Shown here one piece after another: positions 11,498 to 22,740 of a DNA stretch of 64,000 nt. Origin of the DNA: Vicinamibacteria bacterium (GTDB lineage Bacteria > Acidobacteriota > Vicinamibacteria > Marinacidobacterales > Marinacidobacteraceae). A model generated the notes under the pieces. The model was not told the DNA's origin. It ran no database searches and saw only the letters and a program-made list of their open reading frames with translations. Every line of letters begins with the position of its first letter. The stretch's first letter is position 1. The stretch spans positions 960,001-1,024,000 of the forward strand of contig OZ219815.1 of assembly GCA_964291235.2 (NCBI GenBank). Direction: 5' to 3'. Position numbers and translations under genes: made by a program.

Positions 11498-12862
11498 TCA
11501 GTCGCCGTAGCCGACGGTCGAACGCGCGAATTCCTTGACCTTCTCGGCCATCCGGCGCTCTTCCACGATCTTCTCCCAATCCACCGCGGGCTCTTTCACC
11601 TCGGCGGTGGGCGGAAGAATGTACTTCGGCATGTTGTACTCGTCCTTGAACATCTGCGTCCGGACGTGCCCGGTGGCGAACTCGGCGTTCTCTCCCGACA
11701 TGAGGTAGGTCAGCGTCGGAACGACGTCCCGCCGCTGCACCCGCTCGGTGACGGTATGGCCCTTCTTGAAGTCGGGCCCGAGCGCCATGAACCACACGTA
11801 GTGGGCGTAGTAGTTGCCCGGGCTGTGGCCAAGCTGTCCGTAGATGTTCACTTCGTCGTCCCGGCCGCACTCGGGGCGGATCACCAGCGCGGTGGTGTCC
11901 CGGAGGTACGCGTCGGCCTGGATCTGGCGCCACAGGTTGCCGATCAGCTCATCGGTAGTCTTGATGTGCTTGATGTACTCCCAGTAGTCCGTGTTGTAGT
12001 CCCAGAATCCGAAGTCGGCGTGCGCGTCGTCGAGAGCGAGGATTTGCGCGGTGATGGACTTCGGCTTGAACTCCTTGAGGATCTGGGGCACCAGGGTCAG
12101 CACCTGGGCGTCCCCGTAAGGGATTTCCCGGTTGATGACCGGCTCCCGGGTGGAAGGCGGAACGTAGGACTTCGAAGCCAGGGTGCCGTCGATGAAGTCC
12201 TCGACCTGCTTCCGCTCCTTCGCGGTGTGCCCGAGCCCCTTTTCGACGTTCAGATCCACGATCTGAGCGCCGGTGAGCTTCTGCTCCGGATAGAAGATCC
12301 GGTTCATGGTGAGGCTCGTGGACCCGTGCTTTACGCCGTACTCGGGATGCTGGCTGAAGTGCTTCACGTCCCAGGTCCAGGCCCGGTAGTAGGAAGCACT
12401 CTGCAGGGTCCAGAAATCGGTCGCCGTCCCGCCGGCCTTCTTCCGGATGTACTCGGCCCAGGTGGGGTAGCGGGGCCGCTGTGCGGGAGCATCCACGCCG
12501 CTGAGCACCTCGGAGTACATGTAGCCGTGGAGGTTCGCGGTCTCGCCGTAGTCCTCGGTGAAGACCGTGCCCTCGGCAGCCATCTTCGTCTGGAACGGCG
12601 AGTGCTCCGGGTTGTCGATGACGTCGATCTTCCGGGCGCCGTTTCCGAGGATGACGGTCACCAGGTGCTTCGTCTTGAAGCCCGGGTTCTCCGGAAGGAC
12701 CATGCCGCCCTGCGGAATCCCGGCGCCCGCTTCGAAGATGGGGCTGCCGGCGGCGTTCCGGCCACTCAGCACCGCACCGGCGCTGGCAGCCGCGCCCAGT
12801 TTGAAGAAGTCGCGACGGTCAATCGTCTTGGCGGTCGCTTTGGCGGTCTTCTCGGCGGTCAT
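11498..12862 (-). CDS. Tat-exported protein with degenerate alkaline-phosphatase/sulfatase-like fold
   Basis: IDRRDFFK Tat motif; KHLVTVILGNGAR, LDDAH, IRPECGRD, GH, ALGPDFKKG and DVVPTL blocks follow the AlkP-superfamily order. Confidence 0.7.
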   Translation of the reverse strand: MTAEKTAKATAKTIDRRDFFKLGAAASAGAVLSGRNAAGSPIFEAGAGIPQGGMVLPENPGFKTKHLVTVILGNGARKIDVIDNPEHSPFQTKMAAEGTVFTEDYGETANLHGYMYSEVLSGVDAPAQRPRYPTWAEYIRKKAGGTATDFWTLQSASYYRAWTWDVKHFSQHPEYGVKHGSTSLTMNRIFYPEQKLTGAQIVDLNVEKGLGHTAKERKQVEDFIDGTLASKSYVPPSTREPVINREIPYGDAQVLTLVPQILKEFKPKSITAQILALDDAHADFGFWDYNTDYWEYIKHIKTTDELIGNLWRQIQADAYLRDTTALVIRPECGRDDEVNIYGQLGHSPGNYYAHYVWFMALGPDFKKGHTVTERVQRRDVVPTLTYLMSGENAEFATGHVRTQMFKDEYNMPKYILPPTAEVKEPAVDWEKIVEERRMAEKVKEFARSTVGYGD

Positions 12863-14334
12863 CGGGGACCCTCCTTGCCGCTTTCGTCGGCGGCTTCGGT
12901 GTCTTCATTGTAGAAGTTGACCGTGATTCCGTCTATTTCGGAATCCCGATCTTCGTAGTAGAGCTTGAAGTTGCGGGCCTCGTCGGAGATGCCGAGCCGC
13001 ACGAGTTCCCAATCCCCCCACTCCATCGTGTCGGTGACGGTGAACGAGCCGGTCCAGATGTGCGGCTCGGGGAGCTTCGAGGGACGGTTGAGCGCCACGA
13101 AACCGCCGGTCTCGGGGGTCATGCTCTTGAGCTTGACCTTGAGCGCGTCGGCGCCATTCGGCGAACGGACATATCCCTCGATGCCGTGCACGCCCGAGAG
13201 GTTGTCTTCGGCCAGCACGGTGAGGCCCACCTGCTCGCCCAGCTTGGCCTCGGTCTTGGTGAACTGCACCGCCAGGATCTCTGCCGGCACCTGGTCGATC
13301 ATCTCCGTTTCCTGCTCCACGTGCACCGTGGCGGCTTCCATCAGCGGCTCGGTCCGGTTGAAGTAGTACCGGATGTTGGTGGCGTGGTCCTTGAGCGTGA
13401 CGCGCATGAGCTGCCACTCGCCGCCCTCGTACCACTGCGGGATCTGGAGTGCGCCCTTGAAGAGGCCCGGCTGGGCTCCCACCATCACCATCGTCGAGCG
13501 GATCTGGTGGTATCCGCTCGGGGAAACCCACACGGTCTCCGCTTCGGTGGGGCCGGAAACGTCGTCTTCGGCGAGCACGCTGTACTTGATCAGGCCATCG
13601 CCGGCCCGCACCCGCTCGGTTTCCACGGTGACCGACTTCAGGGTGGGCGCGGTGATATCCACCTGGTCGCTCTTGCTGACATCGAAGCCGACCGGCTGTC
13701 CGTCCTCTTCCTGCATGGCCTTGTGGAAGTCGGCCCAGTAGGCCTTCCGGTCGCCCACCTTGTCGGCGATGATCGTCGTGCCGACGACATAGCGGCCGGG
13801 CGCCGCAAAGCGGGAGAGCTTGCCGCGGCCGAGGAAGAGCGTTTCGTCACTCTCGTGGGGCTGGAAGTTGATGTACATGGTGGCCGCGCGGCCGAGCTCG
13901 CGGTTGTAGAACAGCGAGACGAACGACTGCGCCGCGTTGTAGGGCGAGACGACCCGCGCGATGGCGCGCACCTCGTCTCCAGGCGCCACTTCCTTGCTGA
14001 GCACCCGCATCTCGGTGAGGATCGGAGGAAGCTGGTTCCCGGAGAGGTCCACTTCCTTCAACTGCTGATCGCGGCGCCGGTACTGGTACTGCTCGGGAAC
14101 CCGCAGCTCGGGCGCAAGACCCCAGCCGCCGTCGTCGTGCCCGCTCGAACTTATCACTCCGAACTCGTTCAGCACGTCGTGGGGCTCGAGGAGCGGATGG
14201 GTCTCGCCTTCCGGTGGCTTGGGCTCTTCTTGCTTGTCCTGCGCCATGGCGAAGCCGCCGAGGAACAGGAGCGCGACGGCTGCGGCCAGGAGTCCGACCG
14301 CCAAGCGTTTGGGTGTCGTGGAATGACTGAGCAT
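12859..14334 (-). CDS. Secreted protein with about three tandem Ig-like beta-sandwich repeats
   Basis: Sec signal ending FAMA-Q; repeated P.L..v.v...v..G....aEDd.SG...SP.G...F.G...GEW.L....D.A.N...Y units; ATGA overlap with the downstream gene. The track ORF's N-terminal extension is spurious. Confidence 0.75.
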   Translation of the reverse strand: MLSHSTTPKRLAVGLLAAAVALLFLGGFAMAQDKQEEPKPPEGETHPLLEPHDVLNEFGVISSSGHDDGGWGLAPELRVPEQYQYRRRDQQLKEVDLSGNQLPPILTEMRVLSKEVAPGDEVRAIARVVSPYNAAQSFVSLFYNRELGRAATMYINFQPHESDETLFLGRGKLSRFAAPGRYVVGTTIIADKVGDRKAYWADFHKAMQEEDGQPVGFDVSKSDQVDITAPTLKSVTVETERVRAGDGLIKYSVLAEDDVSGPTEAETVWVSPSGYHQIRSTMVMVGAQPGLFKGALQIPQWYEGGEWQLMRVTLKDHATNIRYYFNRTEPLMEAATVHVEQETEMIDQVPAEILAVQFTKTEAKLGEQVGLTVLAEDNLSGVHGIEGYVRSPNGADALKVKLKSMTPETGGFVALNRPSKLPEPHIWTGSFTVTDTMEWGDWELVRLGISDEARNFKLYYEDRDSEIDGITVNFYNEDTEAADESGKEGPR

Positions 14335-14456
14335 GAGGGAAGTTCTCCGTTCGCCCGGGAATAACCGCCGTGCGGGCAATGCACGGAACGGGGGTCCGCC
14401 CTTATACGGCGGAAAGAGGGCCGAAGTCAAATGGGACAGGGGTTTTTGGCCGCGAT

Positions 14457-15029
14457 TCAGGCCCGGACGGACCGGACGAACTCCGCAGCGCGCCGGATTC
14501 CCGGACTGACCCCGGTCCGTTCCGCGAGGCGGCGGAGATCCCACTGCGCGACGGTCCGCATGTCGAGCCGCATCTGCCCCTCCAGCGAGTCGAACACCGC
14601 CCCGTAATCCCGGAGCGCGCCGTCCACATCTCCGGCGGCCAATCGCGCCGCGGCGAGCAGCAGCCGCTGCCGGTCCGAACCTGACGGATCCATGGCCAGC
14701 GCAATTGGAACGCCGGTCTCCAGTCCGGCATCGCGCGGGAGCGCGAAACCAGCGCCGACGGTGTAACGCTGCGTGCGCAGCGTGGGGGATCAGGCGCGGA
14801 CGGACCGGACGAACTCCGCAGCGCGCCGGATTCCCGGACCGACCCCGGTCCGTTCCGCGAGGCGGCGGAGATCCCACTGCGCGACGGTCCGCATGTCGCG
14901 CCGCATCTGCCCCTCGAGCGAGTCGAACACCACCCCGTAGTCCCGGAGCGCGCCGTCCACATCTCCGGCGGCCAGTCGCGCCGCGGCGAGCAGCAGCCGC
15001 TGCCGGTCCGAACCTGACGGGTCCATGGC
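14457..15029. repeat. About 240-bp direct repeat (14457-14696 and 14790-15029) duplicating the 3' end of the TPR gene
   Basis: Manual alignment shows 8 mismatches; the copy encodes the last 78 aa of the TPR protein. Confidence 0.95.
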
Positions 15030-15989
15030 GTGCGCTGTTTCAAACAGCTCCACCGCTTCCCGGTGGCGTCCTTGCAGGTACACGGCGTTCGCGAGGTTGT
15101 AGTGCCCGAAAATGAAGTCCGGTGCGAGTTCCAGCGCCCGGCGAAAGGCGTCCTCCGCTTCCGGCAGCCGATCCAGATCCCGGAGAGTGACCCCGAGGTT
15201 CGAGGCGAGGGAGTGACTCAGGGGATCGAGGTCCGCGGCCTTCTCGAGTTCGGTCAGCGCTTCGCCGGGGCGTTCCAGCTCCCCGAGGGCCGCCCCGGCG
15301 TTCGCCCACCCGGGGGCGAAACCGGGCAGGGTTTCGGTCGTTCGGCGAAACGACGCGAGCGCCGCCTCCAGATCGTCGAGAACGATCATGGTCTTGCCGA
15401 GTTCGAAGTGCGCGGCGGCGAGAGATTCGTCCCGCTCGATGGCCTTTCGGAAAGACTCGGCCGCTTCCGCCGGGTTCTTGTGCTCGTTCGCCGAACAGCC
15501 GGCCAGCAGATGGCCCATCGGGTGGTCGCCGTTCTCAGCCGTTGCCGCCACGGCTGCCCGGGCGCGCACGCTTGCCGCCGGCGCGTGAAGGGCAATGCGG
15601 CGCAGCTCGGCGGCGCTGCCGGCGCGATCCATATCGGTGGCGTCCGGACCGGAAACCGCGGCGGGGGGGGCGGGAGGGACCGGTTCCCGCGCCACCTCGA
15701 ATTGGCAGGCGGCGCCCTTGCCGGCAAGCAGGTCCGCGGCCCGCCGGACCACTTCATCCTCCCGGGCGGAGGCCACCAGCGAGCGGCTTCCGGCTCCGAG
15801 GTGGGAAAGGCGGGCCAGCACGTAGGCTGGCGTGGCGATCGCGGGGAGGGGAGGCGTTTCGTCGAGCCTGCCGCGCCGGCGAATCGCGGAGCGGCAGGGG
15901 AACGCCCGGTGGAAATCGGGAAGCAGCACGGCGCCGGCCTCTTCGGGGAACGGGCCGGTCTCGTGCAGCCGCAGCGGCAACTCCTCCAT
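14790..15989 (-). CDS. Tetratricopeptide repeat protein
   Basis: Successive TPR units (AHFELG..., GWANAG..., LASNLG..., GHYNLA...); start uncertain because the frame stays open upstream. Confidence 0.85.
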   Translation of the reverse strand: MEELPLRLHETGPFPEEAGAVLLPDFHRAFPCRSAIRRRGRLDETPPLPAIATPAYVLARLSHLGAGSRSLVASAREDEVVRRAADLLAGKGAACQFEVAREPVPPAPPAAVSGPDATDMDRAGSAAELRRIALHAPAASVRARAAVAATAENGDHPMGHLLAGCSANEHKNPAEAAESFRKAIERDESLAAAHFELGKTMIVLDDLEAALASFRRTTETLPGFAPGWANAGAALGELERPGEALTELEKAADLDPLSHSLASNLGVTLRDLDRLPEAEDAFRRALELAPDFIFGHYNLANAVYLQGRHREAVELFETAHAMDPSGSDRQRLLLAAARLAAGDVDGALRDYGVVFDSLEGQMRRDMRTVAQWDLRRLAERTGVGPGIRRAAEFVRSVRA

Positions 15990-16303
15990 GGCTAGCGCCG
16001 GGATGACCGGCGCGTCCGCGGCGGCTGGAACCCGGGACGCGGCGGTGCGCGCGGTCTCTCCATCGCGGCTCAGGAGGAGCCTCCACCTCCCTCCCTCCGG
16101 CGGGGGGCCGATAGGCAGGCCAACCGTTTTCGACCGAAAGCGCGGCAGCTCCGGCGAGCCGCGCCGCCGGTGCGGGAGGTGCGGGACACGACACCCACAC
16201 GGTGTTCTTGAGGCGCGACGCTCCCATGGCCCACGATTCTAAGGACCGGGGCCGGCGTCTCCCGAATTCGTGCATCGCGGGATCAATATGCTTTCCGGGT
16301 TCC

Positions 16304-16966
16304 GTGACGAACACGCTCCACCGCTACGGCGCTCCCCAGACGCTGAAGGACGATTACATCGTCTTCGCGATGGCGGCGCGGGGAATCAACGACGAGGGGT
16401 CTCCCGAAAAGCTCCAGCGGTTCACCGAAATCGCGCTTCGGCACGGTCCCATCAACCTCGGCGACGCAACCAAGGGCGGAATCTTCCGATCCTCCCGGCT
16501 GAATCCCCTGGCCCATTGGCGCCGGCGAAAGCGTCTGGCGGCCGATTCGATCCGGAAGGGGGTGGACGCCCCCACGGTGGTCTCGGCGGTTTTTGACACC
16601 GAGGAGGCGCTGGTCGGTTTCCTCGTGGACCTGAAGGAAGCCGATCTGGGCATCAGCATCAACATCAGCGGTTTGACCGAGCGCGCTGCCGAATTGGCCC
16701 GCGACGCAGGAATCGTGCGGCACAGCGTCGAGTACAGCCTGGGTTTCTTCGGGAACCTGGATCGGCTGCCCGACCGCGCCACCCTCCAGCTTTCCACGAT
16801 GTGCGGGCACGGCATGCTCTCGTTCGGGTTCGCCCGCAAGATGCTGGACTGGGTGCGGACCGGCCGTCGCTCTCCCGAGGAGTGCGCGGAGGCGATGGCG
16901 CGTTTCTGCTCCTGCGGCATCTTCAACACCACCCGCGCCTGCCGCATTCTGCGGGACCGCACCTGA
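16304..16966 (+). CDS. Conserved hypothetical Cys-rich (probable metal/Fe-S binding) protein
   Basis: Probable GTG start MTNTLHRYG; C-terminal TMCGHGM...C...FCSCGIFN..RAC. Confidence 0.7.
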   Translation: MTNTLHRYGAPQTLKDDYIVFAMAARGINDEGSPEKLQRFTEIALRHGPINLGDATKGGIFRSSRLNPLAHWRRRKRLAADSIRKGVDAPTVVSAVFDTEEALVGFLVDLKEADLGISINISGLTERAAELARDAGIVRHSVEYSLGFFGNLDRLPDRATLQLSTMCGHGMLSFGFARKMLDWVRTGRRSPEECAEAMARFCSCGIFNTTRACRILRDRT

Positions 16967-17032
16967 TCGCTACCAAGGAAACCGCGGCGTCGGGTCCGGT
17001 GACGGAAACCGCTAAGAACAGGGGGAAAAACG

Positions 17033-17197
17033 ATGGCTGACTGCCCGGTGTGCGCCGCCGCCGTGGAGATATCCGAGGATCCGCTCGAAGGAGAGGTCCT
17101 CGAGTGTCCGGAATGCGGCAGCGAACTTGAGATTCTGGCCCTCGACCCCATCGTCCTGGGCGAGGCTCCGGAGACGGAAGAGGATTGGGGTGAATGA
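17033..17197 (+). CDS. lysW: Amino-group carrier protein LysW (54 aa)
   Basis: Hand translation [54 protein letters not shown]; zinc ribbon plus EDWGE C-terminus; below the ORF track cut-off. Confidence 0.97.
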
Positions 17198-18030
17198 GGA
17201 TCGGGTTCCTTCATTCGCTGATTCGTCCGGAAGAGAAGCTCCTCATCCGGGAGTTGCGAGGACGTCCCGGCGTCGAGTTGGTACTCCTTGATGACCGTCG
17301 GCTGGTGTTCGATCTGCGAACGCCGCCCGCGGTTGATGTCGTCCTGGAGCGCTCCATAAACCACTCCCGGGCGATGCACGCCCTGCGGCTCCTCGAGAGC
17401 ATGGGTGTCCCCTGCGTCAACCGCTACGAAGTCTCGCGAAAGTGCGGCGACAAGATCCTGACGGCCGTCGCGCTCCAGGAGTTCGGAGTGCCACAGCCGG
17501 AAACGCGGGTCGCGTTCACCGAAGACTCCACCCTGGACGCCATCGAACAGCTCGGTTATCCGGTGGTGTTGAAGCCGGCGGTCGGATCCTGGGGACGGCT
17601 GCTATCCCGGATCAACGATCGGGAGGCGGCGGAGACCGTGATTGAGCACAAGGCGATCCTCGGCAGCTACCACCATTCCATCTTCTTCGCCCAGAAGTAC
17701 ATAGAGAAAGGAGGCCGGGACATTCGCAGCTTCGTGGTCGGGGATGACTGCATCGCCGCCGTCTATCGGACTTCGGATCACTGGATCACCAACACTGCCC
17801 GGGGGGCGCGGACCTCCAACTGCCCGGTCACCGCCGATCTCGCCGAGATCTCGCTGCGGGCGGCGGCCGCGGTTGGAGGCGGCGTCCTGGCGGTGGACCT
17901 GTTCGAGACCGGTGACGGCCTGCTGGTCAACGAGGTCAACTACACGATGGAGTTCCGGAACTCCATTGACGTTACCGGGGTCAACATCCCGGAGAGGATC
18001 GTGTCCTACCTCCTCTCTTCCGACCGATGA
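17194..18030 (+). CDS. lysX: LysW-aminoadipate ligase (RimK-family ATP-grasp)
   Basis: [29 protein letters not shown] (LysX-like rather than ArgX-like); follows lysW. Confidence 0.92.
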
Positions 18031-19052
18031 TCCGCGTCTCCATTGCCGGCGGCTCCGGGTACGCCGGCGGCGAACTGCTACGCCTGATGCTGGGTCACCC
18101 CGAGGTCGAGGTGGGGGAGATCACCTCCGAGCGTCTCGCCGGGAAGTACGCCCACGGCGCCCATCCCAACCTGCGCGGCGCCACCCGGCTCCGGTTCTGC
18201 AGGTTGGAAGAGCTTTCGAAGTGCGACGTGCTCTTCGTGTGCCTGCCCCACGGTGAGTCGGCACGTCGGATCGACGACTTCCGCAGCATTGCCGGCCGGA
18301 TTATTGACCTGGGCGCCGATTTCCGGCTGCGCGACAGTGCTGCCTACGAGCGCTGGTACGGCCGGCCGCATCCCCGCCCGGACCTGCTGGGCCGCTTCGT
18401 TTACGGAATCCCGGAACTGAGCCGGCAGGAACTCCCTGACGCGGACCTGGTCGCCTGCGCCGGGTGTAACGCGACCGCCGCCATCCTCGCGCTGAAACCG
18501 CTGTACGCGGCGGGAGTCGTCGGATCCGCCGTCGTGGAGGTCCTTGTCGGATCGAGTGAAGCCGGCAACACGGCGACCGCCACCAGTCACCATCCGGAGC
18601 GCAGCGGCGCGGCCCGGGCCTTCCGGCCCACCGGGCACCGCCATCAGGGGGAGATCACGGCAGTGCTCGGCGCCGACCGGCTCCATTTCTCCGCCACCTC
18701 GATCGAAATGGTGCGCGGAGTCCTGGCGACCTGCCACGCCTTCACGGACCGCGCGCTCGACGATCGGGAGCTGTGGCAGATCTACCGCACCGCCTACGCG
18801 AAGGAGCCCTTCGTGCGCATCGTCAAGGGCCAGAGCGGAATCCATCGCTACCCCGACCCCAAGATCCTCGCCGGAACCAACTTCTGCGACGTGGGGTTCG
18901 AGCGCGATCCCGACACCAACCGGGTGGTGGTGCTCAGCGCGCTCGACAACCTGATGAAGGGAGCGGCGGGGCAGGCGGCGCACGCGTTCAACGTGATGCA
19001 GGGGCTTCCCGAGACTGTCGGCCTGGAATTCACCGGCCTGCACCCGATCTAG
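18027..19052 (+). CDS. lysY: [LysW]-aminoadipyl-phosphate reductase (ArgC family)
   Basis: [34 protein letters not shown]. Confidence 0.92.
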
Positions 19053-19055
19053 CAA

Positions 19056-19143
19056 CCGTGGAAGAAGCACCCCGCGCGGAAGGCAGGGCGGGACAGGCGC
19101 CGAACCCGCGGATGCCGCGGCGCGCGGGGCACTTCTTCCACGG
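19056..19143. repeat. Intergenic inverted repeat (REP/MITE-like)
   Basis: ccgtggaagaagcaccccgcgcg ... cgcgcggggcacttcttccacgg, 21 of 23 bases complementary. Confidence 0.7.
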
Positions 19144-19309
19144 GCTGATGACGCGTATCGCTCCGCGATCCGCGCCATCCTCTTTCGCGGGGAAGGGGAA
19201 ACCCCCTCCCCGCACCCCTCCCCCCGCGGCACTCCCCGACCGGGCGAACTGGCGCGCCGCCAAAGGCCGGGCAAGCGATCTCGGCGCCGACCGCTAGAGG
19301 ATTCCACCC

Positions 19310-19957
19310 ATGTGCCGTCTGCTCTGCGTCCGTGGCGAATCGGCGTTCGAGATGGAAGAGCACCTGACGGCGTTCAGCGAGGTGGCGAGGAACAGCCGCG
19401 AGTTTCAGGGCCACGGCTGGGGCTGCGCCTGGCTGGAAGGAGGCCGCTGGCGGATCTATCGCAACATCACGCCCGTCTGGGAAGACTCCGGCCGGCCGCG
19501 GGGACGTACGGCGCTCCTGCTCGCGCACGCCCGCAGCGCATTTCGGGACGAAGGGATTCGAGTCGAGAACAACATGCCCTTCTTCGACGGCGCCCGGGCC
19601 TTCATCTTCAACGGAGAACTGCGCGGAGTCCGGATCCGCGAGCGGGGAAGGATCGGCGCCGAGAAAGTCTTCAATTTCGTCAAGCGGTTTGACCGTGGCG
19701 ACTTGCGTCTGGCGCTCGAGCGGGGACTCGTTCGAATCGAGCAGCGGGCCCGCTACGTGCGTGCGATGAACATCATCGTCGCCGACACCACCGGCGCCGT
19801 CTCGGTCGCCAGCCGCTTCAACGAGGATCCCGACTACTTTCAGATGCGGCGGGCTACCGTGGGCACCGCCCGGGTGATCTGCTCCGAGCCCTACCGGGGC
19901 TCCGTGCCGGAGCCGGCGTGGACGCCCATTGCCAACGGTACCGTCACCGGGTTCTGA
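19310..19957 (+). CDS. Class II glutamine amidotransferase-like Ntn hydrolase (EgtC/Dug3/YafJ type)
   Basis: N-terminal MCRLL, GHGWG, AHARSA, NNMPF, FNG, CSEP. Confidence 0.88.
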   Translation: MCRLLCVRGESAFEMEEHLTAFSEVARNSREFQGHGWGCAWLEGGRWRIYRNITPVWEDSGRPRGRTALLLAHARSAFRDEGIRVENNMPFFDGARAFIFNGELRGVRIRERGRIGAEKVFNFVKRFDRGDLRLALERGLVRIEQRARYVRAMNIIVADTTGAVSVASRFNEDPDYFQMRRATVGTARVICSEPYRGSVPEPAWTPIANGTVTGF

Positions 19958-19974
19958 CCACGGGGCCCCGCGAC

Positions 19975-20766
19975 ATGTTGCTGATCAAGATCGGTGGAGG
20001 CGCGTCGATCAACCTGGAGGGCATTGCGGCCGATCTTGCCGAGACCGAGCCGCCGTTCGTGATCATCCACGGCGCGAACGCGTTGCGGGATGCGCTCGGC
20101 CGACGCCTCGGCGTCGAAAAGCGGGTGCTGACCTCGGTGTCCGGCTACACCAGCGTTCACACCGATTCCGACGCTTTGGACCTCATCCTCATGGCCTACG
20201 CCGGGCTGGCCAACAAACGGATCGTCGAGCTTCTGCAACAGCGCGGCGTAAACGCCGTCGGGCTCACCGGCCTCGACGGGGCGCTGGTCCGCGGCCGGAG
20301 GAACCGGGGAATCCGGATCCGGGAGGGCGGCAAGACCTTGATCCGGCGCGACCTGTCCGGAAAGCCCGCCGGGGTGAACGGCGACCTGCTGCGGCTGCTG
20401 CTGAACGCGGGATTCACGCCGGTGCTGACGATTCCCGTTCTCGATGAGCGGGGCTTCGCCATCAATTCGGAGAACGACGACATCCTGGCCGCACTGCATG
20501 AGGAAATGCGCGCCGATCAGGTCATCCAGCTGATCGAGGCGCCGGGCTTTCTGGAAGACCAAGACGACCCCGCTTCGGTGGTCGTCCGCATGGGGCGCTC
20601 CGAGGTCGAGCAGCGGGAGGCGCAGGTGAGCGGACGCATGAAGCGGAAGATGCTGGCGCTCCGACGGTTGCTGGAAGCTGCGGCGACGCGGGTGGTGATC
20701 GCCGACGGACGGGTCGAGCATCCCGTTCGGGACGCCCTCCGCGGGCGGGGGACGGTGATCGAATGA
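19975..20766 (+). CDS. lysZ: [LysW]-aminoadipate kinase
   Basis: IKIGGG, IHGAN, SGYTS, INSENDD, GRMKRKM. Confidence 0.92.
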   Translation: MLLIKIGGGASINLEGIAADLAETEPPFVIIHGANALRDALGRRLGVEKRVLTSVSGYTSVHTDSDALDLILMAYAGLANKRIVELLQQRGVNAVGLTGLDGALVRGRRNRGIRIREGGKTLIRRDLSGKPAGVNGDLLRLLLNAGFTPVLTIPVLDERGFAINSENDDILAALHEEMRADQVIQLIEAPGFLEDQDDPASVVVRMGRSEVEQREAQVSGRMKRKMLALRRLLEAAATRVVIADGRVEHPVRDALRGRGTVIE

Positions 20767-21917
20767 ACGCGCAGGCGACGGAGCGGAGGTATGGGCTGGA
20801 GGTCTATCCCAAGCGGGATCTGACCCTGGTTCGCGGGAGGGGCGCGGAGGTCTGGGATGATCGGGGGCGGCGCTATCTCGACTGCGTGGGAGGCATCGGG
20901 GTGGCGAGTGTGGGACACGCCAACCCGTTCGTGGCTCAGGCGATCGCCGAGCAGGCGCGGATCCTGGTGACCTGTCCCGGCATCTTCTACAACGACCGGC
21001 GGGCGGAGCTGCTCCAGAAGCTCGTCTCCATCGCGCCGCCCGGGCTGACGCGCGCCTATCTCTGCAATTCGGGAGCGGAGGCCGTGGAAACGGCCTTCAA
21101 GTTCGCCCGGATCGCCACGGGCCGCACCGGCATCGTCTCGGCCATGCGCGGCTTCCACGGCCGCACCATGGGCGCTCTCAGCGCAACGTTCAAGAAGGAG
21201 TACCGGGAACCTTTCGCTCCGCTGGTGCCGGGGTTCGCCTTTGTCCCGTTCGGCGACACGGAGAAGATGCGCGCCGCGGTCGGCGACGCCACGGCCGCCG
21301 TAGTGTTGGAGCCCGTGCAGGGCGAGGGCGGCGTGCGGCCCGCCGATCCCGCCTATCTGGCCGCCGTCCGCGCCCTCTGCAAAGAGGCCGGCGCCCTGCT
21401 GATTCTCGACGAATCGCAGACCGGGTTCTGCCGCACCGGCAGGATGTTCGCCTGCGAGCACTACGGGGTCGAACCGGATCTGCTGTGTCTGGCCAAGGCC
21501 ATCGCCGGCGGGGTGCCGATGGGCGCGGTGCTGGCGGGTGACGGGTTGCCGCCGCTCGTCGGCAAGCACGGGACGACGTTCGGCGGAAACCCGCTGGCCT
21601 GCGCCGCCGCGCTCGCCGCCATCCGGTTCATGGAAGACGAACGGCTCGCGGAACGGGCGGCGCAGCTGGGCGACCGGTTTGGTGAGCGCCTCTCCCGCTA
21701 CCCGCTCGCCCGGGTGCGCGCCGTCCGGCGACTCGGCCTGATGATCGGGATCGAACTGCGCGAGCGTTGCCGTCCCTACCTGGAGCGGTTGCTGGAAGCG
21801 GGAGTGCTGGCACTGCCGGCCGGGGCGACCGTCATCCGGCTCCTGCCCCCGCTGGTGATCACCGAGGCGCAGGTGGACGAAGTCGCGGACGCGCTCGTCG
21901 CGGCGTTGGGATCCTGA
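20763..21917 (+). CDS. lysJ: [LysW]-aminoadipate semialdehyde transaminase (class III PLP)
   Basis: [45 protein letters not shown]. Confidence 0.92.
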
Positions 21918-21999
21918 CACCGCCAGCGGAACAGCGTCGTTCACCGGAAAGTAGGATCGAGGTGCTGGACGTTGCGTCCCGATCGCCCCGCGAGGCCTC

Positions 22000-22422
22000 A
22001 TGAAGCGTAGGAAACCAACCGGAAGAACAGCGCCCTCGATCCTGCCACGCGGCGACAGCAGGAAGCGGCTGCAGAAAAAAGCCCGGCGAGGCCTTCGGGG
22101 CTACCCCGTTGGCACTCTGGCCTTCTATGGACCGGACGACCGCCGGGCCTCCAAGGTGGTCGCGTCCATTGTGGAAGGCCCGGAGGAGGACCCCTCCGAG
22201 ATGCGCAAGTGGTTCGACGATCAGGAAGACCTACGCGATCGGACCGACATCCTTGACGAGGTGACCGAGTTCTTCGAGCGCTTCGGTGTCCTCAGTGTGG
22301 CGATGTCCGAGAGGATCATCGGATGTCCGCACCAGGAAGGGATCGACTACGAGGGACCGATCTGTCCAAAATGCCCATTCTGGGCCGGCCGCAACCGCTG
22401 GACCGGAGACATCGTCAACTAG
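22000..22422 (+). CDS. Hypothetical protein with C-terminal Cys cluster
   Basis: GYPVGTLAFYGPDD...IIGCPHQEGIDY..CPKCPFW; natural composition. Confidence 0.7.
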   Translation: MKRRKPTGRTAPSILPRGDSRKRLQKKARRGLRGYPVGTLAFYGPDDRRASKVVASIVEGPEEDPSEMRKWFDDQEDLRDRTDILDEVTEFFERFGVLSVAMSERIIGCPHQEGIDYEGPICPKCPFWAGRNRWTGDIVN

Positions 22423-22521
22423 CTCGCGGCATCCGCCAGGACGGTGCCGCAGCCCAGCAGGGTGGCGACGCGCCACTCCTGGACTTGCACGGCGACGCGC
22501 GGTCCCTGCTCGGGTTGGCGT

Positions 22522-22740
22522 GAGGAGCGCCGGCCTCTGGCCGGCATCGCTCCGCGCAGCGGAGCGAAACGCGCGTCGCTGCTCAGCCGCACGGCGCGCC
22601 GGTACCGGGGGCGTTTCGCCGTCGCCGTTTGGCTGGGTGTTGTGCGGCCGATGAGGTTCGTGAGTTTCGCGGCCTGCGGCCGCGATGCCGGCCGGAGGCC
22701 GGCGCTCCTCGCGCTCCTTGCCTGGAAGTCCGGCGTTCCA
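22522..22740. repeat. REP-like element: 29-bp inverted repeat plus a degenerate extra unit
   Basis: gaggagcgccggcctctggccggcatcgc (22522) pairs with gcgatgccggccggaggccggcgctcctc (to 22710), 28 of 29; related units at 14706, 22721 and 30361. Confidence 0.8.

Follow-up and report, generated by a model that had tools for sequence, protein, structure and literature searches.

A predicted Cys-Ntn hydrolase in place of LysK in LysW-dependent biosynthetic operons

The LysW operon and its Ntn hydrolase gene

The window analyzed in the present work, a stretch of 64,000 nucleotides from a Vicinamibacteria bacterium (assembly GCA_964291235.2; C1:960001-1024000 of a genome of 3.45 Mb in two contigs, with a rated completeness of 90.3%), contains a six-gene operon for biosynthesis on the amino-group carrier protein LysW, and one of the six genes encodes a small hydrolase of the N-terminal nucleophile (Ntn) type, referred to below as the Ntn protein. 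It is probable that this protein is the hydrolase which frees lysine or ornithine from the gamma-carboxyl of LysW, and the deamidase of LysW molecules ending in glutamine, and that it thereby replaces the M20 hydrolase LysK. The basis for this proposal consists of the gene content and linkage of the operon, the exclusion of LysK, the fold and conserved residues of the Ntn protein, the pattern of glutamine and glutamate at the end of the carrier, and a model of the complex between the two proteins.

All six genes lie on the forward strand. The first, lysW (17033..17197), encodes a zinc-ribbon amino-group carrier of 54 residues with the C-terminus EDWGE, which matches TIGR01206 with 58.1 bits (cut-off 53.2) and PF21344 with 58.9 bits; it is followed by lysX (17194..18030), whose product is an ATP-grasp ligase with LysX_preATP_grasp and RimK domains (TIGR02144, 324.9 bits against a cut-off of 275.6), and by lysY (18027..19052), which encodes an argC-type reductase (TIGR01850, 367.5 bits). 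After a spacer of 257 nucleotides (19053..19309) comes the gene for the Ntn protein (19310..19957), a Cys2 hydrolase of 215 residues with the N-terminus MCRLL and a class-II amidotransferase fold by prediction. The operon ends with lysZ (19975..20766), the gene for the [LysW]-aminoadipate/glutamate kinase (NF010659, 247.7 bits against a cut-off of 223), and lysJ (20763..21917), the gene for a class-III aminotransferase (TIGR00707, 426.8 bits against a cut-off of 410), which also matches the LysJ_Th_th model with 480.7 bits, under that model's cut-off of 700. All five pathway genes are present in the operon, four of the five above curated cut-offs, and LysX, LysY and ArgB/LysZ have one homologue each in the whole genome.

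The clustering of lysW, lysX, lysY, lysZ and lysJ at 17033-21917 had been read from the letters of the window in a preliminary description; its coordinates hold, and the curated models agree with the gene assignments. The coordinates of the open reading frames also confirm the position given there for the Ntn gene, inside the cluster and 17 nucleotides before lysZ, the in-frame ATG of which stands at 19975, exactly 17 nucleotides past the Ntn stop codon. The same description had noted that the cluster contains no M20 peptidase, and the 21 M20 matches of the genome all fall outside the window.

The Ntn protein matches no Pfam family at E≤0.01. Its scores against GATase_4 (PF13230, 14.6 bits) and GATase_6 (PF13522, 15.2 bits) lie below the gathering thresholds of 23 and 27, a few cluster representatives of its family carry a precomputed PF13230 match, and its sole NCBIfam match is to the EgtC model TIGR03442, with 38.5 bits against a cut-off of 218.65. 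The Pfam and NCBIfam scans gave no match to an M20 metallopeptidase domain, and the Ntn protein is an analogue of LysK rather than a member of the LysK family. A word-indexed search found 3002 relatives at E≤0.001, which the source databases label as hypothetical or as predicted glutamine amidotransferases, and an exhaustive search of 1.84 billion representatives found 301 clusters at E≤0.001, 191 of them at E≤1e-10; judged by the number of clusters in so large a set, the family, whose members have about 210-225 residues, appears small and compact.

An AlphaFold2 model of the protein has a mean predicted local distance difference test value (pLDDT) of 96.2 and a predicted template modelling score (pTM) of 0.92, and a Foldseek search with this model returned, with probability 1.00, EgtC, 3MDN, 1TE5 and the glutaminase domains of GlmS and PurF. 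The best matches were the EgtC chains, with a template modelling score of 0.81 at 18% identity, followed by 3MDN, 1TE5, GlmS and PurF in that order. On the strength of the model, the protein is predicted to have the four-layer alpha-beta-beta-alpha Ntn fold of the class-II amidotransferase superfamily.

The spacer between lysY and the Ntn gene, which is 257 nucleotides long in the window as against about 31 in the twelve closest relatives, carries a copy of a dispersed intergenic repeat that has 72-77% identity to four other intergenic places on contig C2 and an internal inverted match. No Rfam match at E≤1 was found for it in a search of positions 16000-22600, and it is probably an insertion like a small dispersed repeat element which lies outside the mechanism proposed below. 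A promoter scan of the operon region found no promoter-like sites, and the single terminator-like site, which falls within lysY, is fewer than were found in shuffled sequence.

Gene linkage and the distribution of LysK

The conservation of the operon was surveyed in the best 80 loci from 573 relatives, which were found with an alignment of 10 sequences and have at least 58% identity; the loci were annotated with the window's own proteins, with the neighbourhood defined as the region within 10 kb, and more distant members of the Ntn family were sampled through phylum searches only. These 80 closest loci span three phyla, and comprise Acidobacteriota (Candidatus Marinacidobacterium and Vicinamibacteria, 77-83% identity), Gemmatimonadota (Longimicrobiales and Palauibacter, 60-75%) and Gammaproteobacteria (60-68%). 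The Ntn gene has lys genes beside it in 78 of the 80 loci, and lysW, lysX, lysY, the Ntn gene, lysZ and lysJ are found together in 68; three loci are cut by contig ends, and no M20 match occurs within 10 kb of the Ntn gene in any of the 80. In the Acidobacteriota sample described below, the Ntn gene is linked to lys genes in 14 of 17 same-contig cases. The absence of lysW linkage among homologues, which had been named in the preliminary description as grounds for rejecting its proposal, is contradicted by both counts.

Only the arrangement W-X-Y-Ntn-Z-J is conserved across the phyla. The genes that flank it are common only to 13 close relatives, and the six genes therefore constitute a conserved unit; a second conserved hydrolase adjoining the operons was not found in the loci surveyed. 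The order of genes in LysK-type operons is W-X-Y-Z-J-K, while operons like that of the window have the order X-Y-Ntn-Z-J. There is also a second type of Ntn operon, W-X-Y-(gene)-Z-J-Ntn (in genomes G043, G063 and G144), the Ntn protein of which has 31-35% identity to that of the window, and because the Ntn gene in this type directly follows lysJ, it occupies the slot of lysK.

The distribution of the two hydrolases was determined in samples of 301 Acidobacteriota and 151 Gemmatimonadota genomes, in which LysX-positive genomes were defined as those over the TIGR cut-off and Ntn matches were accepted at E≤1e-5; LysK was taken as present if it scored over its cut-off, and as absent in Ntn-type Acidobacteriota if there was no match at E≤1e-30. 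Among the 301 Acidobacteriota genomes, LysX is over the cut-off in 32, an Ntn match is present in 20, and LysK is over the cut-off in 17. The 32 LysX-positive genomes divide into 17 which have the Ntn gene without LysK (16 of 31 if the unpublished genome G152 is left aside) and 15 which have LysK without the Ntn gene, with none that has both and none that has neither. The 11 LysX-positive Gemmatimonadota genomes divide in the same way into nine with the Ntn gene only and two with LysK only, so that, of the 43 LysX-positive genomes in the two samples together, 26 carry the Ntn gene alone and 17 carry LysK alone, and none carries both or neither. LysK over the cut-off was likewise found in none of five further Ntn-type genomes. 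The co-occurrence of the homologues with lysWXYZJ to the exclusion of lysK, which the preliminary description had put forward for checking, is borne out in all 43 LysX-positive genomes.

The remaining three Acidobacteriota genomes with an Ntn match comprise two with EgtC-like paralogues, which score 177 and 212 bits against TIGR03442 and are unlinked to lys genes, and one (G027) with a truncated copy. This copy (L102, 7917-8441) is shortened at its N-terminus, lacks the Met-Cys start, and lies at a contig end beside a fragment of lysJ; LysX was not found in genome G027, and the two remnants may belong to a decaying operon. The two other genomes that carry LysK (G132 and G234) have LysK-type operons which are cut by contig ends. 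In one Ntn-type genome (G104; L096, 2-4818), a second cluster of argC-, argD- and argB-like genes with a weakly LysK-like M20 gene (59.9 bits) lies beside the LysW operon, and is probably a separate acetyl-type arginine cluster.

On a tree of LysY proteins, the operon of the window nests among operons of Acidobacteriota, Gemmatimonadota and Gammaproteobacteria, and this nesting points to transfer of the whole operon.

Carrier end, active site and proposed reaction

In 29 LysW proteins from Ntn-type loci, C4, C7, C25, C28 and E49-G53 show no variation, but the final residue varies. In the Acidobacteriota sample, 8 of the 13 Ntn-type loci encode a LysW with the C-terminus EDWGQ; of the best 80 loci, 73 have an intact LysW, and in 6 of these 73 its last residue is glutamine, whereas the LysW proteins of LysK-type loci end in EDWGE in 15 of 15 cases and in glutamine in none of the 15. 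When the final residue is placed on the LysY tree, its glutamate or glutamine state requires at least four changes, all of which fall in Ntn-type rows and none among the 14 LysK-type rows. Among the sampled loci, Gln-ended LysW is thus confined to Ntn-type operons, in which the final residue has switched at least four times independently. LysX loads its substrate onto the gamma-carboxyl at the C-terminus of LysW, and since this carboxyl is needed, Gln-ended LysW must be deamidated before it can be loaded; an enzyme with a glutaminase fold that cleaves the terminal gamma-amide would carry out this deamidation as a side reaction of release. In one close relative (L138, 7961-8257) the lysW frame extends to 98 residues and the EDWGE end is lost, which is a frameshift or an assembly error.

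Eleven residues of the Ntn protein (M1, C2, R3, G38, W57, R75, N101, G113, G116, N154 and S192) are invariant in all 46 aligned members, which reach down to 28% identity; G102 is nearly invariant among them, and 78 of 94 full-length representatives of the family begin with Met-Cys. The H-x-R and N-G motifs of EgtC and 3MDN have their aligned counterparts in R75 and N101-G102; in GlmS and PurF the arginine holds the alpha-carboxylate of the substrate and Asn-Gly forms the oxyanion hole. The clearest departure from the relatives is found in the segment G-R-I-G-A-E of the Ntn family, where 3MDN and the two EgtC-like paralogues that are unlinked to lys genes have G-[ST]-T-D-S-E. Gly116 is invariant at the column of the Asp, which in GlmS (Asp123) and PurF (Asp127) holds glutamine by its free alpha-amino group. 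The loss of this Asp fits a glutamyl residue whose alpha-nitrogen runs on into a peptide chain.

Residues 2-215 of the Ntn protein were also folded together with LysW, using the proteins' own alignments. The resulting model of the complex scored 0.67 (median of 0.68, 0.48 and 0.67) as against 0.01 for the best of three controls; 58 of 80 solved complexes reach the pass mark, as do 2 of 110 mismatched pairs, a calibration that holds only roughly here since own alignments were used. The runs share at least 95% of their contacts, with a partner pLDDT of at least 83. In the modelled interface, LysW residues 49-54 (its EEDWGE tail) contact Ntn residues 2, 75-78, 100-111 and 115-117, a set that takes in the nucleophile, the arginine, the oxyanion motif and Gly116. 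The model supports a predicted docking of the LysW tail at the Cys2 active site.

The reaction that would follow from these features is one in which Met1 is removed, so that Cys2 becomes the nucleophile, and a glutaminase-type pocket takes up the acidic LysW tail, EDWG(E/Q). Arg75 would grip the free alpha-carboxylate of the last LysW residue and Asn101-Gly102 would serve as the oxyanion hole, while Gly116, in place of the Asp of relatives that bind free glutamine, would leave room for the peptide chain leading from the alpha-nitrogen. Cys2 would attack the gamma-amide between the terminal Glu and the alpha-amino group of lysine or ornithine, freeing the amino acid and forming a LysW-gamma-glutamyl thioester, and water would resolve the thioester to give LysW-Glu, again ready for LysX. 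The same chemistry acting on an unsubstituted gamma-amide would deamidate Gln-ended LysW and make it competent for ligation. The substrate, the acyl-enzyme intermediate and the amino acid released in this genome are the parts of this scheme that we infer. A doubtful variant, to which only a small chance can be given, is that the thioester is resolved not by water but by the next substrate (2-aminoadipate or glutamate), in the manner of gamma-glutamyl transpeptidases. If this were the case, the carrier would be reloaded without ATP and Gln-ended LysW charged directly, with LysX required only for priming or repair, and the result would be an energy-saving carrier cycle that is not known from any amino-group-carrier pathway.

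The proposal of the preliminary description, that the Ntn protein is a non-orthologous enzyme for the release of lysine from LysW, draws support from the failure to find a lysK in the genome, the linkage in 78 of 80 loci and the exclusion in 43 of 43 genomes; the restriction of Gln-ended LysW to operons with the Ntn gene, the replacement of Asp by Gly, and the position of the LysW tail in the modelled active site are support which that description did not have. Several considerations weigh on the other side. Seven gammaproteobacterial loci have lysW, lysX, lysY and the Ntn gene without lysZ or lysJ within 10 kb, and two of the 80 loci (L176 and L205) hold the Ntn gene without any lys gene within that distance. 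The Ntn or LysK label needs only two changes on the LysY tree, and one is possible, so that the 43 genomes cannot be counted as that many independent trials, and the exclusion goes back to one or two replacements that were then inherited and transferred. The score of the complex expresses the confidence of the model and is not a measurement. Finally, because the genome is 90.3% complete, LysK can be described as not found in it, with its absence unproven: no protein exceeds the cut-off of the LysK model TIGR01902, the best score being 78.1 bits against 163.1 (C2:718543-719595), and the intact lysK elsewhere in the genome that would have told against the proposal was not found over this cut-off.

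The protein with this best score, an ArgE/DapE-like M20 hydrolase, is the main rival to the Ntn protein: it, or another M20 protein of the genome, could be the true equivalent of LysK, with the Ntn protein as an accessory or unrelated enzyme. About 19 M20 matches of the genome exceed the Pfam cut-off. The ArgE/DapE-like protein, of 337-350 residues, is about the size of LysK and scores 78-81 bits against TIGR01902, and the 109 bits it obtains against NF003367, the model for [LysW]-lysine hydrolase (cut-off 363), must be added to the considerations that weigh against the Ntn protein. Every curated match of this protein is nevertheless under its cut-off, and the best ones are to DapE models. Its gene at C2:718543-719595 sits between fabF and mutY, and it does not track the Ntn-type operon: a search at E≤1e-10 found no match to it in G004 and G012, both of the Ntn type, but there is a 37%-identical match in the LysK-type genome G157. 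The true LysK of genome G006 scores 54 bits against it, compared with 229-823 bits for the LysK proteins of LysK-type loci. We regard this explanation as improbable.

The restriction of Gln-ended LysW to loci with the Ntn gene, together with the glutaminase fold of the Ntn protein, could be produced by an enzyme that only matures Gln-ended LysW to the Glu-ended form while another hydrolase frees the product. Against this role alone, the Ntn gene is kept in operons where LysW already ends in Glu, namely in the window, in 67 of the 73 related loci and in 5 of the 13 loci of the phylum sample; there is no other conserved hydrolase near the operons to free the product, and LysK is present in none of the Ntn-type genomes searched. 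A role in maturation alone is accordingly given a low probability. It is very improbable that the Ntn protein is an ordinary glutamine amidotransferase or an enzyme of the EgtC/YafJ type which acts on a free small molecule and is linked to the lys genes by chance or regulation, for although EgtC provides both its best fold match and a weak match of 38.5 bits, this score is far under the EgtC cut-off while EgtC-like paralogues of the same phylum reach 177-212 bits without lys linkage, the Asp of those paralogues is an invariant Gly in the Ntn family, the lys linkage persists across three phyla, and the family is small and compact (301 clusters among 1.84 billion representatives).

Product of the pathway and comparison with known systems

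The product of the operon in this genome may be ornithine, lysine or both; the shared LysW systems of Sulfolobus and Thermococcus serve lysine and ornithine together. In favour of ornithine, the genome has single argB- and argC-type genes as well as argG, argH and lysA, and, at 90% completeness, no ArgJ was found in it; no close homocitrate synthase was found either, the only candidates being LeuA and one unassigned paralogue. No ornithine carbamoyltransferase, for the step from ornithine to citrulline, was found in the genome, the best match being PyrB. The argG and argH genes are adjacent and, like this match, lie outside the window (C1:1255875-1258423; C2:56355-57239).

In favour of lysine, the LysZ protein matches the equivalog model NF010659 over its cut-off, and the genome yielded no DapA over the cut-off, so that its diaminopimelate route looks incomplete. 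The genome also has a lysA (diaminopimelate decarboxylase) over the cut-off and two DapA-like genes far under the cut-off (C2:1120370-1121614; C2:2097664-2098524; C1:473033-473968), the latter seemingly in catabolic or transport contexts, judged from the first residues of neighbouring open reading frames alone. Ntn-type operons of other acidobacterial families hold a homocitrate-synthase-like gene in the lysW-lysX or the lysY-lysZ interval (L088, L089, L090, L098, L100 and L101), and the operon of genome G004 (L090, 10666-14564) includes genes for homoaconitase and homoisocitrate dehydrogenase as well. These homocitrate-route genes indicate that the Ntn family as a whole serves the aminoadipate route to lysine; no gene for homocitrate synthase, homoaconitase or homoisocitrate dehydrogenase was found within 10 kb in the operon of the window's type or in the 80 relatives closest to it.

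Upstream of the operon, the C-terminal 75 or so residues of a TPR protein (14790-15989, minus strand) recur almost identically in the open reading frame 14457-14693, and a proline/arginine-rich stretch occurs twice in the open reading frame 12859-14877 (minus strand). The repeats, at about 14400-15000, suggest a tandem duplication of about 330 bp.

LysW-type pathways are a model for the evolution of lysine and arginine synthesis, and many thermophiles and archaea have no other known route to lysine. In many bacteria, among them Acidobacteriota, Gemmatimonadota and Gammaproteobacteria, the final step of the pathway stays unfilled in automatic annotation, and such organisms therefore look auxotrophic; many of the carriers of the Ntn gene are, by their record titles, uncultured marine or sponge-associated lineages. 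If the assignment of the Ntn protein is correct, this gap is closed, the existence of LysW genes that encode a terminal Gln which LysX cannot use is accounted for, and a case of analogous enzymes is added in which a metal hydrolase and Cys-Ntn thioester chemistry perform the same step; a gamma-glutamyl amidase directed at a protein might also be useful as a tool. In the literature available for searching, no paper was found that joins LysW with an Ntn enzyme, an amidotransferase, EgtC, YafJ or deamidation. A 2025 paper on Thermus still gives LysK as the hydrolase (PMC12998189), and GapMind 2026, outside its supplementary tables, gives no substitute for LysK (10.1101/2024.10.14.618325).

Among known systems, the closest in function is LysK itself (M20; TIGR01902, NF003367; known from Thermus, Sulfolobus and Thermococcus), with which the Ntn protein is proposed to share both its reaction and its place in the pathway. 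The two have unrelated folds, LysK being a di-metal M20 hydrolase of about 350 residues and the Ntn protein, of about 215 residues, being proposed to act through a Cys N-terminal nucleophile and a covalent thioester, and operons with the Ntn gene tolerate Gln-ended LysW, which was found with LysK in 0 of 15 loci.

The closest in structure is EgtC, the gamma-glutamyl amidohydrolase of ergothioneine biosynthesis (4ZFJ, 4ZFK, 4ZFL; TIGR03442), a stand-alone enzyme with the class-II Ntn fold, Cys2 and the N-G motif, which likewise cleaves a gamma-glutamyl amide. The Ntn protein is 18% identical to EgtC, is about 20-70 residues shorter than the EgtC-like paralogues, and has Gly116 instead of Asp; the immediate neighbours of its gene are lysY and lysZ and not egt genes (the egtA, egtB, egtD and egtE families were not searched for), and its proposed glutamyl group is the C-terminus of a protein. 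The solved sequences nearest to the Ntn profile belong to the YafJ-type and class-II domains 3MDN (E 2.4e-11) and 1TE5 (E 1.5e-3), whose functions are unknown and of which 3MDN retains Asp at the position of Gly116.

The closest parallel for the proposed double activity is Dop, which cleaves the small protein Pup from lysines and, in species that encode PupQ, deamidates PupQ (PMC8599861), so that cleavage of the gamma-glutamyl amide at the C-terminal Glu and deamidation of the Gln form of a small protein fall to one enzyme. Pup resembles LysW in its Gln/Glu dimorphism across species (PMC8599861). Dop differs in its glutamine-synthetase-like fold, its use of ATP-derived phosphate and its lysine epsilon-isopeptide substrate, and the relationship is one of analogy and not of homology. 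Set against these systems, the pathway of the window is a known one, in which the usual release enzyme would be replaced by a non-homologous protein that also acts as a deamidase.

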